Shown here: in pieces, positions 13,807-49,913 of the stretch
Position numbering within the stretch: position 1 is the first letter of the stretch
Layout of the letters: each line of letters begins with the position of its first letter
The notes under the pieces: model-generated
The model's input: the letters and a program-made list of their open reading frames with translations, nothing else
Told to the model about the DNA's origin: nothing
Database searches by the model: none
Source of the DNA: Podarcis liolepis
Lineage: Eukaryota
Length of the DNA stretch: 64,000 bases
Assembly: GCA_965112155.1 (NCBI GenBank)
Contig: OZ218112.1
Reading direction: 5' to 3' (one strand)
Position numbers and translations under genes: made by a program

Positions 13807-14106
13807 CCTTGATGAGATCCTCAACATATAAATTCCCCATAATCTAGATAGCCAGGCCATAAGCAAAGAGCAGAAATGAGCAATATCCCACTGTGAATCC
13901 AAAGCTTTTGGAACCAATGTACTGCATATATTGCAGCTTCCCCGTTGCCATCCTCTGCTCCTACCCCCACTGCCACATCACATCAAATTCTAGATTGTAA
14001 TCTCCACGGAAGCTGGGAGCTGTGCTTTTTGTATTCTGTAAAGCAACATGTACGCTGAGGCACTGTATAAGAAAATAAACACATAAATAATATTTTTGTA
14101 GGGATA

Positions 14107-14456
14107 AAAGGTAAAGGGACCCTGACCATTAGGTCCAGTCGTGACTGACTCTGGGGTTGCGGTGCTCATCTCACTTTATTGGCCGAGGGAGCCGGCGTAC
14201 AGCTTCCGGGTCATGTGGCCAACATGACTAAGCCGCTTCTGGCAAACCAGAGCAGTGCACGGAAGAGCTGTTTACTTTCCCACCAGAGTGGTACCTATTT
14301 ATCCACTTGCACTTTGACGTGCTTTTGAACTGCTAGGTTGGCAGGAGCAGGGACCGAGCAACGGGAGCTCACCCCTTCGTGGGGATTCGAACTGCCGACC
14401 TTCTGATCGGCACGTCCTAGGCTCTGTGGTTTAACCCACAGCGTCACCTGCGTCCC
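14107..14456 (-). mobile_element. Sauria SINE (Squam1-type), full length
   Basis: tRNA-like head with B-box (agttcgaatcc on the minus strand), (ACCTTT)n tail, 13-bp TSD ttttgtagggata. Confidence 0.93.
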
Positions 14457-14989
14457 TTTTGTAGGGATATTGAGATTTAAATGTTCAAGAAGGCTAGCCA
14501 CTTGATAAGACTCTAGTCCTTGATTTGATTGGGAGACACTGTGGCAGCTAAGTAAGTTTGAAACTACTTTAAATGGGTTGCACAGGCATCCCTGCACAAT
14601 GAATAGATCAGATGACTCAAGCAAGCAAAGCCACCATGGGCCTACTCACTCAACTTACTTAGCACAGCTGCCAATCAATTTGAGTTATCTGCAATAAAGT
14701 TTTAATTACCAGCCTCAGATGCAGTAAGCTGTTGGAGTCTCTGGACCCCTCCTCTGGATCTCACTGAAATAAATGTTTCTGCCTTATCCAGTACCTTTCC
14801 TTTCCCCATTTTTCATTGCATGAACCTGCTGTAGATATCTGCAATGAAACAAAGAATATGGTGGCTCTGATTGATACTGTATTCTTGTTTTTTGCCAATG
14901 AAGTTATGCCTTCATGACAGAGTTCATGCAATTATTTCAATATGGCTATAGGGTTGGAATGGGGTTTTGAATGTTGAGGACATTGAAAT

Positions 14990-39499: not shown

Positions 39500-40325
39500 T
39501 AATGTTAGTGAATTGTACAAAGCGTGTTCTCCTTCATGGAGAGCACGTGTTGCAGTGGGGGCCGCCAGGACACTCCAAAGTTGGGGGGCGGGCTGACTGA
39601 TCGTTGGCCACTGATGCGATTGGGGCTTCCCTTGTTGTTGGGAAGAAGATAATGTTGCCAATTTTTGATTGACAGCCAGAAATAGTAAAACCCCTTGCAT
39701 GAGGCTTCCTCTTTTCGCCCGTGCAGCGGATTGCCCGTCCCCCCACCCTATATTTAGGGTTGTTCGCATTGACCTTGCTATGGCTGTCATGGGGTCGTCT
39801 GCTCTTGGGGCAGGGGCCTGGTAGGAATTTTGTCCATCTGGCTGATTGGCTGGGGCCATTTGGTTTTTGCCTACTGCGTAGCAAATCGTCACAACTTGTA
39901 AGGTTCGCGGTTAGGCATTGGTTTATGGTTTGGTTGGTTGAGGGGCATGGATTGGCTGTGCCTGCCCCTCTAATGCTGCTGCTGCTGCAAGGGATTCCGT
40001 TAAAGAAATTGGGGGCTAACTATTGCTTGTCCACTCTGTCAAGGGGGCTCGGGCCATAGCAATGAGCTCCTGGTTGCATTTGGGGTGAGGGCAGGTTCCC
40101 TGCTCCGCGTAACCCCCAAGTGTATTCCCCCATTCTGACTTTTGCATCATGCGGAATGTCAGTCTGTCCCCCATGGTGGGGGCAGATAGTCGCAAGCAAT
40201 GCCTACGCAACCACTCACAAATTTGTATTTTAATAAAGTTGTGGCCAAAATTATGCCAAAAATCTTAAACAAAAACTTCTGTGTGATGTGTGAGTTATTG
40301 GGGTGGACCTGGGGACCTCGACACG
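39500..40325 (+). mobile_element. CpG-rich LTR-like unit, possibly DIRS/Ngaro-derived
   Basis: GC box, ATTGG, TATA-like ctatatttag (39748-39757), structured motif 39771-39898 and aataaagttgtggcc (40232); homologous architecture at 48470-49150 on the minus strand. Boundaries and class uncertain. Confidence 0.55.
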
Positions 40326-43300
40326 CAATGAGCATAATATAAAATATCAAAAAATGACTTAAATCATTGGCCACAAGGAGTCTAGCAAGGAAAGAATACA
40401 AAGGTTGCAGCAAGATGCACCTCAATGGAGATACACTGGTGTGGAGCCACCACCAAAAAGGTCCTTCTATGAACCTCCACACTACGCACCTCATTTAACA
40501 TAGGAAACGCCAGGGCAACTTTTTATGATGAATGCTCCTACTAACTATGGCATTTGATATGTGATGCCACCTTCACACATGTAAGTTATTGATGTTGCAG
40601 TGATCAAATGCTGAACATGCCTGTGTGGTCTGGAGATGAAACCAAAGGTTTCCATACATATTTTTTGTAAACTGCTTTGAGGATTTTTTTAATTTTTTAT
40701 TTTACAATGAGGCATTGTATAAATTTATGAAATAAACAAGTAAACACACACACACATGCCACATTTTCTCCAAGGAACTCAAGGTTGCATAAATTATTCT
40801 CTCCTCTTTCATTCGTTCCCCTTTGAGGTAGGCTACACTGTGAAAGACAAAGGGAGAGAGAGTGGTCCAAGGTAATCCTGTGCGTTTTATGGTTGAGCGA
40901 AGATTCAAAACCAGGTCTTCCCAGGCCTAGCCTGACATTAATTGTCACACCATGCTGGTTCTCAAGTCACATCAATGCTATGCATTCAAAGTGGGCACCA
41001 TTTCCATTAGAAGAGAACAAGGGAAGTGTTCATGGTGAGTTCTGGCACCTCCTTTTCTAGAAAACTAGGACTGCTCAGCACCATTAACAAACTACAGTCT
41101 TTGGGATTCTTAGGGGGGAGCTGTGACTCTCAATGTGTTATGAAAGTACTTTATGGTATGGATGTGACCTCAGCATGAACCCAGGCCTCTCATAATGCTC
41201 AGCAGGTTAATCAACCACAGTATCCTCTCAACATTCATCTCCAGTTCTTAAAGTGCATTGAACTGTTGCATGTGGGTTCAGCAGTTTGGGCTCCCAAAGC
41301 TAACTGCTCTGCTAGGCTGTGTGGAAGACAACACGTACAGTAAATATATCCAACAATCACATTGTCTTGACCTTGGGATTTTTAATGTGCACATGCACAT
41401 ACCTAGCCAATCTCCAACGGTGCACATGCTGATGTTACTGACCAGAAGAAAACTCTCCTTGAGCTGGTGAGAACCCACACATCAAATGAACCCAAAGTTG
41501 GGTGTTGTTGTTGTTGTTTTTTTAAAAAAAGATGCACATGTATTGTAAAATTGTAAACCACACCGAGTGCCTTGGCAAAAAAGGCGATAAACGAACAAAC
41601 AAACCTGCTACCAAGAGAACATCCTCTCTGCACAAATGAAGTCCATGCAATGGACTTAAAAAATATTGTGAATTCCTGAGAATGAATCATACATTCAATT
41701 ATGATTACATGCACACCTCTTAAACAAAGATAGGGAAATGGCGTCCCTTCAGAACCTGTAGGACTACAACTCCCAACTAGCATGGCAATGATCAGGATTG
41801 TTGGGAATTGGGGTCCAATAACATATGGAGGGCTGCAGCTTCCCCCAATGTTGTGTAAAGGCTTACTGTGGATAAAGGACTGAATTGGACCTCACTTTTT
41901 GGATTACATCTATCTAGGAAAATGGCAGTTCTCCTGGGCTTATATATTCCCCAGACTAAATTGCAGTGTGGGAAAAGAGGAAGGGGATCCATGAGCAAAA
42001 CGGAAGAATCTCCATTTGTTTTCTTAAGCTCTTTCTCTGGATAACCAAATGATCAATTCTCACTGTGTGCAGAAGAAAATTGAGTTAAGTTTCGTAATTT
42101 GCTGGTGCTGCTAGAGCTGTGGGTTTTGCTTCATTTTTTTAAGTGGATGGGGAATCCTTGATTTGGACTATCCTGTTAAATTCTTATGGTTTTTGTTTTT
42201 TTTTTTGTATTTGCATTATGTTAAAACACAGTTTGTCAGACAATGGTGGACTTCTGAAAAGATAACCACTCTTGATATTTTGTGCCTATTAGCTTTCGCT
42301 CTTTCCTTATAAATCTGAGTCTGGCAATGGCAAGTTCACCGACTCCAGATTTGAAACTTGATTTCCTTGGCATCACAGCATTAGCATTCAGCTGTGGGAT
42401 GTAACATAATAGTATTATAAGCAACCTTCCATCCTGTTGTCATGGATGCAACACAACCCAATATTGATAGCAATATAACACCAGAACATTATGAAATCTC
42501 ATTTTTATCTACCAATTTTAATTTAATTACAGTGGAAATTCTTTTCAAATATCAAATGTGCATTTATTTTTTCTCACCTACCCCCATTTAAAGGCATTCA
42601 TTCCATTAGCATTATGTAGCAGAATTCTCTTTGTCCAATGTTCCTTTTCTTTGTAGTCGAAATATATGTCAGTGTTAGTTTTGGAGACTATTTGAAATAA
42701 GCTTCCATAAAACGTATTTGTTTCTGAGTCAGGGTGGTGTTATTTATTTATTTGCAAATAAATTTTAAAGAACATTTGCATTTCTGCTACAAGGGCTGCA
42801 TCGCACTACTTGCAAATAGGGATGGATGGATCAATCTGTTTCCAGTTTATGACAATTTTGCATGCGTTTAGCCATAACTCTGTTCCATCCTGTTTCTACA
42901 TTAATCTGCAGTATTTGATTTTAGAAAGAACATCTGTACAGAAATTGGCTTTTAGTCTTTATTTTATTTTTATTTTTTTGGTACGGTATTGCATTTTCCA
43001 TAACAGAACCATATAAAATTACAAAAGGTATGTTTGTCCAAGAGAAATAAATTGCTACAATTTCTACTTTGAGGTTGTTGCTTGTTTGTTTTTTTACATT
43101 CAAGCGGTACATAAATATTATGAAATAGATAATGAAGATTCATAGAGAAGCTGCGTCATCTTTTGAGTCTATTAGGAACAAAAAAAGTGAAATGCACATT
43201 GAAGTATGGATTTAAAGAATCCTTAAATGCATAGTTTATCTCAAAAATGCATTTAAATACATATTTTATCCCAATGTATGCATTTTAAAATGCATTTTAT

Positions 43301-45982: not shown

Positions 45983-48469
45983 GTTGGGAAAACCCTGTTT
46001 CCTTAAAAGGGGGAAAAGCAAAGTCTTTACCATTGACCAATCTTTTCCAATGCGGCAAAGTATAGATTTTTTTGAGCTTCAACTCCCATTCAACATGGCC
46101 AATAGTCAGGGTGATGGGAGTTGTGGTCCAACAATGTCTGGTGGACAGCAAGTTGGGGAAGTCTGCTATAGATGTTTTTGAATGTTGTTATGACTACATT
46201 TTAAATTGTTTTAGCCACCCTTTCATAATTGCACATTGTTTTCTGGTAACCATATTTAATTGTTTTCCCCCCCTTTTCCTCCCCCCTTTTACACAGAAAA
46301 GCAGCTTTTCCTGCCTAGATTCTGTGCACACCCCTAATTAAAACTACTATGAAGGTGCCTGCATCAGTCAGCAAAACCAGGCAGAGAACATTATGGAGTG
46401 AAAATTAAAGAAGGAAAACATCAGAGAGTCTACTGTATATGCCTGCTGTTAGACACTCAAGCATGGAGAACAGGATACACTTCCATGGATGGATAGCTTT
46501 CCTTATTAAAAAAACCCAGTAGGACGCACAGTAGGGGAACATACTAAAACAAGGCTTTGTAGTAATTTCCTTGAAAGAAATTTCCCAAGATAGCAAGTTG
46601 AAAAGCTTTTAATCTTACAGCTGGCTTAAGGAGGGAGTTTTGCTGTAGGTGGTATAAAGACAGACCATTTGATTACAGCTGATCAGGTAGAGTTGGTCCA
46701 ACAATCCAGACACTTTTGTTCCCCCAAGGGACTTTGAATTTCCACTAATGAAAAAAAAAAAAAGGTTGAAAAACTTTTGTCTGAAATTTCCAGTATCTTT
46801 AAGGACATGAGAATATTTGGGGGTTGGAGGGAGATGTTCTTATTTCAGTTTTTGTTAATAATAAAAAAAAACCATGTTAAGCGCCAGATGAAAAATCTCT
46901 TTGCAAGATGACAGACAGCTATGGTAGTGTTTGCTTCCTTTCTAGACTTTTAACTCATTCCTTGGATGACCTAGATGTTTCTGCAGGTGAACGTGAAAGA
47001 CAATGTCATGTCATTTCTGCTGTCATTCCGAACTTCCGATTTCCTCCCGAATAATGGCGCTATAAATAGCACCCTCTTAGCAATGTAAGCTGCCCAATTT
47101 AACCATCCCCGTTTTGAAAAGGGGATTGAAAAGACTTCCTGTGAATATTTGCCAATTCAAAGAGAATGACTTGGATAGCGCACCCTGTATTATTACCATA
47201 GACTGCCCTATATTATTACTCATATTCCTGCCCGTAAACTTTGTTTGAGGACTGCTAGCCAATTCAGTCATTAGCCTTTGCCTAAATTCCAAATATGAAA
47301 AGAAAAAAAGGAAACCATGAACCAGAATTATTTGTGTTTTAGGCCACTGGTAGATTGAAACAAGCTGTATGGTGGTGGTGGCGGAACAGAATGGGAGGCT
47401 AAACAGATGGGTTTGTATCTAATGAAGTTGAAGTCACTTAGCAGTGGACTTGTCAAACTAGTGAAAAATTTAGTGCTGCTGGAACATTATTGTGCAAAAG
47501 AACATAAAATCAAACTGGTGGTAACTTTGTTGTGGAATAGATTGCACAATTTGTTGTGCTGTGCGTTTCTGCTAGCACAACTGTTATGTTGAATTCCTGT
47601 TGTGCAACATTAAGACTCACCCCTCCATTAGCTCAAGAGCCCTTGTGCTAGTGGACAAAGAATGTTGGGTACAGCCCATGATGTAGCTGAGCCCCATTTG
47701 TGCTCTTCTCTAAGCACAACTAACAGGAGTTCCTGCCTTTGGTATATGAAATCGGATAGACAACTGAGAAAGGGACTGACAGCAGTATAGCAAGACACAG
47801 TAGTGGGATGAAGTTCAGTTTTAGCCTGTGACTAGAACAGCTGTGGGAAAGGATATTGTAGACCCGGGAAAGGTTCAGAAAATGGAATTAAAAATAATCA
47901 AATAATTGGGGTAACTCATCTATGACAAATGGTTGCAACATTTGGGGCTTTTTCATTTGGAAAACAGGAATATTTGCCTACAGACCTGTTTCTCAATTCT
48001 GCCCCCTGCTGTGGACCCTCGAAAGGCCTTATAAGGCTCACATGGGCTGGAAGTGCCCTAGAGTGATGCTATTCCAGGGGTACTTGTGGGGGGTTGGATA
48101 GTTAAAATGTGAGCCACCTGGCACCAATCAGAGGAGTACTGTGGTTAGGTGAGCCAACCGGAGCATCCACTGGCATGGAAGCAGTTCCAATGTCAAGGTG
48201 TCCATCAAATTTGGAGCTCTAGCCCTGATCCCTAGTTCCACTCAGAGCTGGAAATAAAGGAGAACAGGCTTTGCTACTCCAGTATCTGATAACTCTGCAG
48301 TAAAGTGAACCTGAAGGAAAATTTGAGCAACAGAAACATAATTGTTAAGTTATCGTGCCCTCTCTTCCCATTCTTCTCCCACCTCATTTTCTCTGACTTC
48401 CAATAGAAGTTTGCACCTCTGTTTTCTGTCACATGATGCCTGTAGTACAGTGAGGGGCAAACCACAGAA

Positions 48470-49150
48470 ATTTGTGTTGAAGTAGACCACATTTTTATTG
48501 TTTACAGATGTACAGATGGCCAAGGCATTGGGAATGTATCTGGCATCAAGCAGCCCACCTGCTGGTTGATGAATAAGGTGCAGTTGACTCAGAGCAGGGG
48601 AGTCACCCCTGACATGGACTAGGTGCTATGATCCCACTTGCGTCACCATTGGGAGATGTGCTGTGGTCCATCACCCCCTGTGTGGACCCCCAGAGACACC
48701 CTTCCTGGACCCCTTTAACCTGACCAGCTAAGGATCCAACCCAATGGCTTATCCACCCAAATTGTGACTGTTACTATGAGGTAGGTGAAAAACTGCAGAC
48801 TGGCCAATTCGTCTGCAGGAAAAAAATTCCTCCCTGGCCCTGAATACAGCCACTGAATAACCATAGCAAGGTCCTGTTGACCTGCGTGCTCACCTTCAGG
48901 CTGACCAATTACAGCCTAGGTGGGTGAGTGGTGAATCTAACAAATGAGGGCAAACTACACCAGGCTGACCTTTTAAATACTACAGGGGCGGGCCTGGTTC
49001 AGCCTCCTCCCCTGCAACTTGATTGGCCCATTCAACCAGATCATCCCCATCAGGCCAGCACAGCCAGAGGGGGAGGCACTAGACATCCCCTCCATTGTGT
49101 GGGAAGGAGCTAGCCCCTGGGACCAGGCTGTAGCCGTGCCACACCACACC
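48470..49150 (-). mobile_element. LTR-like unit related to 39500-40325 (DIRS/Ngaro-like?)
   Basis: Minus strand order: CCAAT, GC box, tatttaaaa, structured motif 48758-48873, gttaaag, then caataaaaatgtggtc. Confidence 0.55.
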
Positions 49151-49913
49151 AAACAGCAAATGCTGCTCCCCTGGAGTCCCAGGTGAGAAGATATTTCTGC
49201 ATTTAGAGCTGAATAACCTATAATAGCAACACATGAAAAAAAATGCTAATCAGCCCAATTTCTTGCTTAGGCATGAGCTCTGTTGCTATTGTATATAAAT
49301 ATGTTAGAAATCAGTTGGAAAGGGTTTAAATTACAGTCCCCTTGGCACAGGACTTCTAGGTCATGTTTTGCCCAATACGATGAGGTACCAGTGGTGGCCT
49401 GATTCAGTTCAAGCTACGTTCATGAGACCTGAGAGTGTTTTCAGCACCTTGTAAACCTGACTAACCCAGAGCTGAGAAACACTCTCCGTGTCCTGAATAT
49501 CTCATGTCGGCCACCAAGGGCTGAGAACAGGAAACAAACACGCTTTATAATGCGTTTCACATTGAAATAATTAAAGAGAATTGTTGCTGGAGGGAAACGT
49601 GTCTTTAAAAATTAACCCTGATTTTTTCACTGACACATTTCATTTACTTAGAGCGGTCCTTGGCATTTCCCTCCCCTCCCCTCCCCAATAGAACAAGCTT
49701 AACATTGGCTGAAAAGGGAAATCAGGGAGTGGGGTGCGAAAGAGAAAAGAAAACTTGGGATCAGGAGGAATAGAAAATCCATTCCTACAATTCTTACTCG
49801 CTCAAGCAGTTCTTATGAGGACTGTGCTTGTGACTTTGGATAAGAGGCTTAAAACTGAGTTAAGAACCCAAATTCGCAAAATAACAACTTTAAGGATTCA
49901 TATCCCTTTCCTG

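Follow-up and report, generated by a model that had tools for sequence, protein, structure and literature searches.

A conserved predicted RNA fold in the spacer of a lizard Ngaro retrotransposon and its possible role as an ENE-like poly(A) clamp

Introduction

In a 64,000-nucleotide stretch of Podarcis liolepis DNA (contig OZ218112.1, assembly GCA_965112155.1; hereafter the window), two places on opposite strands, termed copy A and copy B, carry the same short sequence anchors around what appears to be one RNA fold. This raises three questions. First, what kind of element carries the two copies? Second, is the fold itself kept by selection? Third, what could such a fold do for its carrier? 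An earlier note, made from the letters of the window, had offered tentative answers, and these are taken up below together with the results that bear on them.

Results

Parent element of copy A

The 781 bases around copy A were used to search the genome (1.57 Gb). The best 40 of 3305 candidates match over the whole length with 94–95% identity, and besides them there is one partial match. At one locus a partial copy stands head to tail; taken over a greater length, this locus (L061) is a complete element with the order A1, a long ORF, RVT_1, a phage-type integrase, a GDSL hydrolase, B1, A2, a unique spacer U and B2. The long ORF after A1 in L061 has no match in Pfam. The domains of L061 are recognised with E-values of 1.5e-12 (RVT_1), 1.3e-4 (integrase) and 0.057 (GDSL hydrolase), the last of these reaching 8e-5 to 1.7e-3 in 4/4 relatives. 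RVT_1 exceeds the cut-off in 3/3 elements; the Phage_integrase/SAM matches (E 6e-5 to 1e-3) are under the curated cut-off, as are those to Lipase_GDSL_2 (E 8e-5 to 0.057 in 5/5). A methyltransferase domain gave no match on the three RT ORFs.

The split direct repeats of L061 are identical, with A1=A2 over 223 bp and B1=B2 over 419 bp (100% each), and those of L061 and 18 further elements are 98–100% identical. Vertebrate Ngaro elements are defined, in the accessible part of 10.1101/2021.08.05.455354, by split direct repeats and a hydrolase, without a methyltransferase. Since the parent element has split direct repeats and a hydrolase and lacks a methyltransferase, it is assigned to Ngaro. By homology, copy A lies in a solo end (A-U-B, 810 bp) that belongs to a young Ngaro element, a retrotransposon of the tyrosine-recombinase type (Table 1). 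Its termini have AA on both sides and no longer target duplication; the ends AA-AGCGTG...ACACGC-AA are common to 30/30 fetched loci, again with no longer duplication. Solo AB ends are known for Ngaro in Cafeteria, as far as the accessible text of PMC8547959 goes. The window copies are solo ends of this kind, likely produced by recombination between A1 and A2, and are probably inert remnants.

Two further observations concern the surroundings. The elements L061, L209 and L233 are inserted in a 185-bp satellite array. Within the window, a SINE-like repeat of 350 bp lies at 14100–14457 and at seven more places, with at least 8 copies of 78–91% identity.

Table 1. Coordinates of the features in the window.
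Feature	Position	Strand	Basis
Solo A-U-B end, Ngaro	39519..40328	+	homology to close copies and full element L061
Split direct repeat A	39519..39733	+	A1=A2 in L061
Pyrimidine initiator CTTCCTCTTTT	39705-39715	+	same offset in full elements; putative start site
Unique spacer U	39734..39906	+	163-181 nt in 19 full elements, once per full element
Small hairpin CCCUA-UAUU-UAGGG	39746..39759	+	CCC..GGG stem kept with varied loops
Structured motif, copy A	39771..39897	+	folding, covariation, covariance model
P0, copy A	39771-73/39888-90	+	predicted fold
P1, copy A	39775-82/39877-84	+	predicted fold
P2 arm, copy A	39792-39819	+	predicted fold
Lower stem, copy A	39820-25/39870-75	+	predicted fold
U-rich internal loop, copy A	39826-33/39864-69	+	predicted fold
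Upper stem, copy A	39834-39863, loop 39844-53	+	predicted fold
Tail GUCACAACUU, 5′ strand of predicted long-range helix, competes with P0	39888..39897	+	complementarity, covariation, folding
Split direct repeat B	39907..40328	+	B1=B2 in L061
B-closing helix UUAGGCAUUGG	39911-39921 with about 40195-40205	+	11 pairs, covariation
Poly(A) block	40224..40258	+	UGUA 40224-27, AAUAAA 40232-37, AAGUUGUGGC 40236-45
AAGUUGUGGC, 3′ strand of predicted long-range helix	40236-45	+	complementary to tail
CC-A, presumed cleavage site; GU-rich tract downstream	40256-58	+	sequence context
Older solo element of same architecture, carries copy B	48432..49200, ends approximate	-	family homology limited to span
Structured motif, copy B	48759..48873	-	covariance model

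Position of the motif and promoter signals

A search for YR gave 142 scored hits, from which 40 loci were fetched across the identity range. In 19 of these 40 YR-bearing loci the motif lies between two poly(A) blocks. As for the others, one carries the motif behind a damaged B1, 14 stop at B1 and have no motif, one breaks inside A2 and five are without a B tail. According to this census, a complete element carries the motif a single time, in U. All 20 coding loci that carry the motif have it in spacer U, between A2 and B2, and U is the sole structured block upstream of B2 but not of B1. The motif had been taken mainly for a 5′-end element; in the full element it stands at the 3′ end. The motif core pattern has 1072 matches in the genome and 0 for the reversed control, the former being a lower bound because the pattern excludes copy A's own subfamily.

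The string ctatatttag ahead of copy A, previously regarded as TATA-like, was rejected as the promoter. It forms the loop of a CCCUA/UAGGG hairpin that is kept in relatives, the string itself is found in only 1 of the 30 closest copies, and the relatives have their TATA boxes and a pyrimidine initiator inside repeat A. In the 19 full elements, TATA(T/A)A and CCTCTT are found at the same offsets: counted back from the end of A, the TATA-like box comes at about 55–60 nt and the pyrimidine initiator at about 25 nt. The TATA is weak in the L061 subfamily. Repeat A of the window has GC and CCAAT boxes, with the TATA position at about 39680–39690. A reading of the ctatatttag stretch as a splice acceptor was also dropped, the AG not being kept among relatives.

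The 14 coding loci of the form A1-ORFs-B1 end cleanly at B1 (L199, L201, L205, L209, L211, L222, L224, L226–L229, L233, L236 and L237). They are the complement of the abundant A-U-B solos and could come from B1/B2 recombination or from recombinase action at the internal B1-A2 junction. Many of the YR-search hits fall on contig G000:C20, in a dense cluster of a 61–65% subfamily with open YR frames; the usual B1-A2 junction is present in 0/9 loci fetched from this contig, and the motif in L230 alone.

The fold and its covariation

The minimum-energy fold of copy A shows exactly the stems described for it in the earlier note, and the anchors on which the comparison with copy B had been built are all in place: GACCTTGCTATGG at 39771 (+) and 48873 (-), together with GG.AGGAATTTT, ATTGGC, TTTTT(G/CA)CCTAC and GTCACAA.TTG, as well as the AATAAA at 40232. 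Copy A alone is no more stable than shuffled sequences (z -1.23, with 27/200 shuffles equally stable), and the best fold of copy B itself (z -3.14) is without P1, so that the statement of a same fold rests on the alignment. The stems had been said to be rebuilt between the two copies, which is right for the P2 extension and the apical stem, whereas P1, the P2 core and the lower stem have nearly the same sequence.

For this alignment, 36 diverged copies were picked from 85 matches and aligned by sequence after removal of near-duplicates and mis-cut rows. Over the 32 named pairs, 86.3% of the cells are paired, in comparison with 31–45% in slid controls, and two-sided changes occur in 12 of the 32 pairs, a result reached by 5/500 shuffles. 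The 24 matches aligned with the covariance model, 22 of which come from loci of coding elements, give 90.0% pairing and 9 pairs with two-sided change (1/500), and a second model-fitted alignment gives 15 (0/500), though such alignments favour the model to which they were fitted, and the copies are all relatives of one another. From the unfitted alignment, RNAalifold gives back only 12 pairs, in P2, the lower ENE stem and the apical stem. The covarying changes cluster in the P2 extension, the apical stem and the first pair of the lower stem. The view that the RNA structure of the motif is under selection is supported.

It is extremely improbable that the motif has no RNA function, its conservation reflecting DNA or cDNA signals or shared descent only. 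The kinship of the copies does inflate the shuffle controls, ATTGG is a reverse CCAAT box, and copy A alone is not unusually stable. However, the near-invariant G.U pairs and the one-sided changes suit the plus strand only, the reverse strands fold at z -0.68 and -0.94, and compensatory changes are found both among the young subfamilies, where 6/26 have A-U for G-C in the lower stem, and between Ngaro and the bird-like module described below.

The motif core is composed of GG-AA-U3-5 opposite U3-6-(C)G-CC, with CC/GG closing above. GG/CC below the loop and CC/GG above it are present in 25–26 of 26 copies, and AA and (C)G separate these pairs from the U tracts. Across the 21 full-length copies the 5′ tract is U3-5 and the 3′ tract U3-6; pairing of AA with UU would shorten the loop. 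Some young elements have short tracts, the 5′ one being U3 in 6/21 and the 3′ one U3 in 1/21 and U4 in 8/21. In partition-function folds of 12 predicted short RNAs, the 5′ UUU is unpaired in all 12 (paired with a probability of 0.10 or less), the lower stem forms with a probability of 0.51–1.00, and P1 is variable (0.00–0.98). The 552-nt RNA predicted for the window copy has neither the motif nor the tail helix in its fold (z -1.26).

In the 21 full-length copies, the apical loop AUUGGC is kept in 10, reads AUUAGUG in 8 and is replaced in 3. A tertiary contact or protein site had been suggested from its conservation in copies A and B; because it is lost in 11 of the 21, it is not the essential contact. 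Pseudoknots of AUUGGC with GUCA or GGCC were considered, and they were not counted since the loop changes without a change of the partner; no pseudoknot partner for the apical loop holds across subfamilies.

Run on the 64-kb window, the covariance model finds exactly copies A and B, both of which are in its training set. Rfam has 0 matches in the window at the gathering score and chance-level ones only at E 10, the best (E 1.6 and 0.063) lying elsewhere or belonging to unrelated families; the motif therefore corresponds to no annotated family there. These results bear on two functions named beside an ENE in the earlier note. Unspliced RNA needs export, and the 3′ position and the conserved internal loop would suit a nuclear export element of the CTE/RTE-like type. 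We consider this very improbable, given the lack of an Rfam match, the apical loop that is not conserved, and an internal loop that is U-rich on both sides, unlike CTE loops, which are purine-rich. Less credible still is a self-cleaving ribozyme. Retroelements often carry ribozymes, and the compact branched fold with conserved unpaired bases is of a suitable kind; against this, no ribozyme family matches even at E 10, no loop pseudoknot partner holds across subfamilies, and a cut in U would part the B-A junction from B2. The ENE remains the best reading of the motif.

The copy B locus

Copies of the copy B family are 65–75% identical to one another, and their homology is confined to about 49200–48432; an element start at AAAGCGTGTT (49546) is accordingly not supported. 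No coding remnant was found in the loci tested for this family. Judged from their sequences, the copy A and copy B elements are relatives, because they have the same motif, the same B-closing helix and the same poly(A) block, and the idea that the motif is shared here by unrelated elements is not supported. The copy B tail GUCACAAUUU and its signal AAAAUGUGGU (48495–48486) together carry one compensatory change, C-G to U-A, and one mismatch. As separate observations, the copy B family has a splice-donor-like AAG/GTGAG 15–25 nt before the motif (window 48900–48890 on the minus strand, relatives L034–L040) and TATTTAAAA at 48979–48971.

The tail helix and the poly(A) block

At its 3′ foot the motif carries a tail, GUCACAACUU, which complements AAGUUGUGGC with one G.U. 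The latter starts in the last two A's of AAUAAA, about 335 bases from the tail. Across copies, the UGUA-AAUAAA block is located 140–380 nt (mostly 300–340) downstream of the motif, with a presumed 3′ end behind it. The signal is preceded by UGUA and followed, after about 20 nt, by CC-A; together with a GU-rich tract these match an ordinary poly(A) site, for which the consensus is established. A processed poly(A)-ended copy was found in none of 8 candidate loci, all of which have intact B ends.

The tail helix is paired at 10/10 positions in 50 of 66 copies, 13 of the original 79 rows having been dropped because no signal was found or the distance fell outside 140–400. In 46 diverged copies, 95.6% of its cells are paired. 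Two pairs show two-sided change, A-U to G-C in L059 and C-G to U-A in copy B, and both events come from old copies. Partition-function folding of the short RNA predicts the helix with a probability of 0.31–0.99 in 11/12 full elements; in the young element L223, which has a tail mismatch, the probability is 0. It is the only 9-bp complement between U and B common to 12/13 elements, and shuffled B sequences give such a partner at a rate of 10–26 per 2000. The tail helix is nested outside a second covarying helix, which closes B and has 94.4% of its 11 pairs formed and 4 with two-sided change (46 copies). In the U-B region, the 8-mers with the highest conservation fall, among other places, in the poly(A) block, GGAATTT, AGGCATTG/CAATGCCT and GTCACAAC.

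The overlap of the tail helix with AAUAAA suggests another function, namely that U is a poly(A)-site switch, in which the tail masks the signal at B1, giving read-through, or at B2, silencing a short RNA from the A2 promoter, while the U-rich loop is a protein site. We regard this as unlikely. It agrees with the tail also pairing with the B1 signal, at 0.5–0.96, in 5/8 nascent-RNA folds, and with B1 having another upstream partner, GUGAGUGGU. This sequence surrounds the hydrolase stop (L061 2080–2070 region), just upstream of B1, and pairs with the stretch before AAUAAA in B1 only, at 0.82–1.00 in 6/6 elements having it; B1 and B2 are therefore predicted to fold differently. On the other hand, U is made 300–500 nt after the B1 signal, only two of the six signal bases are covered, and the U-rich loop and the bird-like occurrence are left unexplained. 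A masking of the B1 downstream element through pairing of the C-rich start of U with the G-rich end of B1 is not predicted either, the duplex forming in isolation but at 0–0.19 in context. A poly(A)-site switch is compatible with the ENE model rather than exclusive of it, and a signal for Gag or RT, considered below, could coexist with it too; these two are its serious rivals.

Some local features were also noted. In B, a hairpin at window 39997–40012 (+), alignment columns about 320–335, has the loop G(U/G/A)UA(A/C)A, which is conserved and which CC/GG closes in almost every subfamily; this loop is a possible tertiary docking site for the U-rich loop. The apical-loop bases UUGG(C) at 39844–39850 (+) complement (G)CC-AA at 40253–40259 (+), a relation not conserved in 11/21 full elements, and could pair with the presumed poly(A) junction, where the tail would provide the A's. 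In the solo L250 (G000:C18:19012948), A14 replaces the A-rich stretch after the presumed cleavage site, before the normal B end; slippage may account for this, or else a jump of the cDNA at the poly(A) junction.

A related module in bird-like DNA

Pattern scans gave 92 matches in metagenome sequences and 2 in viral ones. When these 94 loci were scored with the covariance model, L127 reached 62 bits and L191 52 bits, and the next best 21.5; the remaining 90 of the 92 metagenome matches are chance, and both first viral matches are without a model score. Another scan of viral contigs gave 4 matches. L127 and L191 are 83% alike over 638 bp and show no Ngaro homology. We take their DNA to be bird-like, judging by a CR1 end. 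Relative to Ngaro, the stems differ in a compensatory manner, by G-C to A-U in P2, U-A to A-U in the lower stem and a rebuilt apical stem; the U loop and the stems are kept, and the tail GUCACAACUU is absent. Downstream in both loci follows a second, degenerate module, in which mainly the U tracts and a GGAAGG/CCUUCC stem are kept.

About 900 nt upstream of the module and on the same strand, L127 has a 67-bp, 73% match to the end of lizard CR1 ORF2 (E 2e-5 pairwise, 5e-4 against the fetched loci, tblastn 0.035), at this single locus. L127 DNA itself has no match in this lizard genome. A CR1-type pattern has 0 matches there, and a looser one has 2, both in Ngaro-type old solos. The link to CR1 3′ UTRs, as suggested in the earlier note, thus has partial support, from the module in 2/94 loci, both in bird-like DNA; the CR1 match itself is weak and confined to one of them. 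It is doubtful, though conceivable, that CR1 LINEs and Ngaro elements have passed a portable 3′-end RNA module between them and that in Ngaro this module acquired the tail, which zips it onto the poly(A) signal, a triple helix then holding the poly(A) 3′ end as the start for RT and so supplying the DIRS primer. If the CR1 link holds, the RNA module would be common to unrelated retroelement orders.

The same occurrence matters for a further reading, in which the fold is a cis signal for Gag or RT, packaging the read-through RNA and keeping its 3′ end in place where reverse transcription begins, perhaps by self-priming. The motif is single-copy and confined to the read-through RNA, its multi-way junction is conserved more than an ENE core, the tail helix carries the 3′ end to the fold, and the primer of DIRS-1 cDNA is stated as unknown in the accessible part of PMC7192593. 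Weighing against such a signal, the module without a tail also occurs in an element with a CR1-like remnant. Since priming on target DNA is expected of the CR1 RT, the core that the two elements share should have a function common to both, for example stability. On balance, we find a Gag or RT signal somewhat unlikely.

Discussion

The features above lead us to propose that the motif acts on the read-through RNA as an ENE-like clamp for poly(A), docked to the 3′ end of that RNA, a reading to which we give an even chance. It is based on U sitting before B2 and not B1, on the ENE-like anatomy, and on the nested helices that bring the poly(A) site near. Transcription would start near the end of A1, and many transcripts would end at B1. 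Only read-through of B1-A2-U into B2 would yield the B-A junction, which is needed to rebuild both ends; that a read-through RNA is required is inferred from the element layout and from the DIRS-1 model, as given in the accessible part of PMC7192593. In such an RNA, B would fold as a closed domain and the tail helix would bridge the 335 nt, leaving only about a dozen bases between the cleavage site and the foot of the motif. The poly(A) tail could then form 3–5 U.A-U triples in the U-rich loop. These triples would slow deadenylation, with the replication template being selectively stabilised as a consequence.

In favour of an ENE, a two-sided U-rich internal loop between two helices is indicated by both prediction and covariation, and the Evade ENE requires G-C pairs beside its loop (PMC12501189, accessible part). 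Against it, the invariant 5′ AA could pair with two of the 3′ U's and shrink the loop, the tail helix over the last two A's of AAUAAA could hinder 3′ processing at B2, and conservation of P1, P2 and the junction goes beyond what an ENE needs. The short U tracts of some young elements also count against it, as do the pairing of the tail with the B1 signal, the tail helix's two compensatory events and its mismatch in L223, the window copy's predicted RNA that folds neither motif nor helix, and the 8 candidate loci with no processed copy among them.

If the ENE-like clamp is true, it would represent a new architecture, namely an ENE that a long-range helix docks to its own poly(A) signal, and this in a tyrosine-recombinase retroelement of a vertebrate. 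It would suggest how an element whose two poly(A) repeats are identical separates its replication template from its mRNA, and it points to a place in which to seek the unknown primer of reverse transcription in the DIRS order. The cassette formed by U plus B is about 520 nt long and non-coding.

ENEs are established in viruses, in MALAT1/NEAT1 and in plant and fungal transposons. A survey of transposon ENEs by Tycowski et al. in 2016 reportedly mentions one fish species in its abstract, and its tables or supplements may therefore already list a related ENE from a fish element. In the literature searched, which is other than this main survey and was available in part, there is no description of the motif or of a helix between spacer and poly(A) signal.

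The element itself is of a known type. It resembles the hydrolase-bearing members of the Ngaro superfamily (order DIRS), such as DIRS-53_XT of Xenopus, in the layout A1-gag-RT-YR-SGNH-B1-A2-B2 and in the identity of the repeats (10.1101/2021.08.05.455354), and the Ngaro of Cafeteria in having solo AB repeats (PMC8547959). Different from the published Ngaro elements, so far as the accessible text of these sources describes them, the lizard element adds a unique structured spacer of 163–181 nt between A2 and B2.

Two families of triple-helix RNAs share single features with the motif. In the double ENEs (dENE) of plant and fungal transposons, for instance rice TWIFB1 (PMC13541005, accessible part), the likeness is a 2x2 pyrimidine loop above a short CC/GG duplex, which is seen in the A-type subfamilies. 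Membership of the dENE class was rejected, because the upper 2x2 loop is base-paired in the copy B family, leaving one loop there where a dENE has two. With the MALAT1/MEN-beta triple helix (accessible part of PMC13541005), the A-type subfamilies share encoded A runs just after the signal (GGCCAAAAUU..GCCAAAAACC). In contrast to MALAT1/MEN-beta, these A runs are missing from other subfamilies and a canonical UGUA-AAUAAA block is present; a MALAT1-type triplex with an encoded A-tract was rejected, with one apparent compensation (L213, L215) and A runs that are not general.

The closest resemblance is to the single-domain ENEs of KSHV PAN (PMC13541005) and Arabidopsis Evade/Copia93 (PMC12501189). 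As described in the accessible parts of these two papers, they likewise have a U-rich internal loop between two helices and G-C pairs adjoining the loop, and the likeness extends to a position in a retroelement's 3′ spacer, ahead of the presumed poly(A) site. Unlike them, the lizard motif is embedded in a multi-way junction, has its 5′ U tract preceded by an invariant AA and its 3′ tract followed by (C)G, goes down to three U in its tracts, and has a predicted long-range helix to the poly(A) signal. Its host is a vertebrate tyrosine-recombinase element, in which the triplex and the stabilisation are putative. Set against the literature searched, the structured spacer and its predicted helix to the poly(A) signal are the new part.
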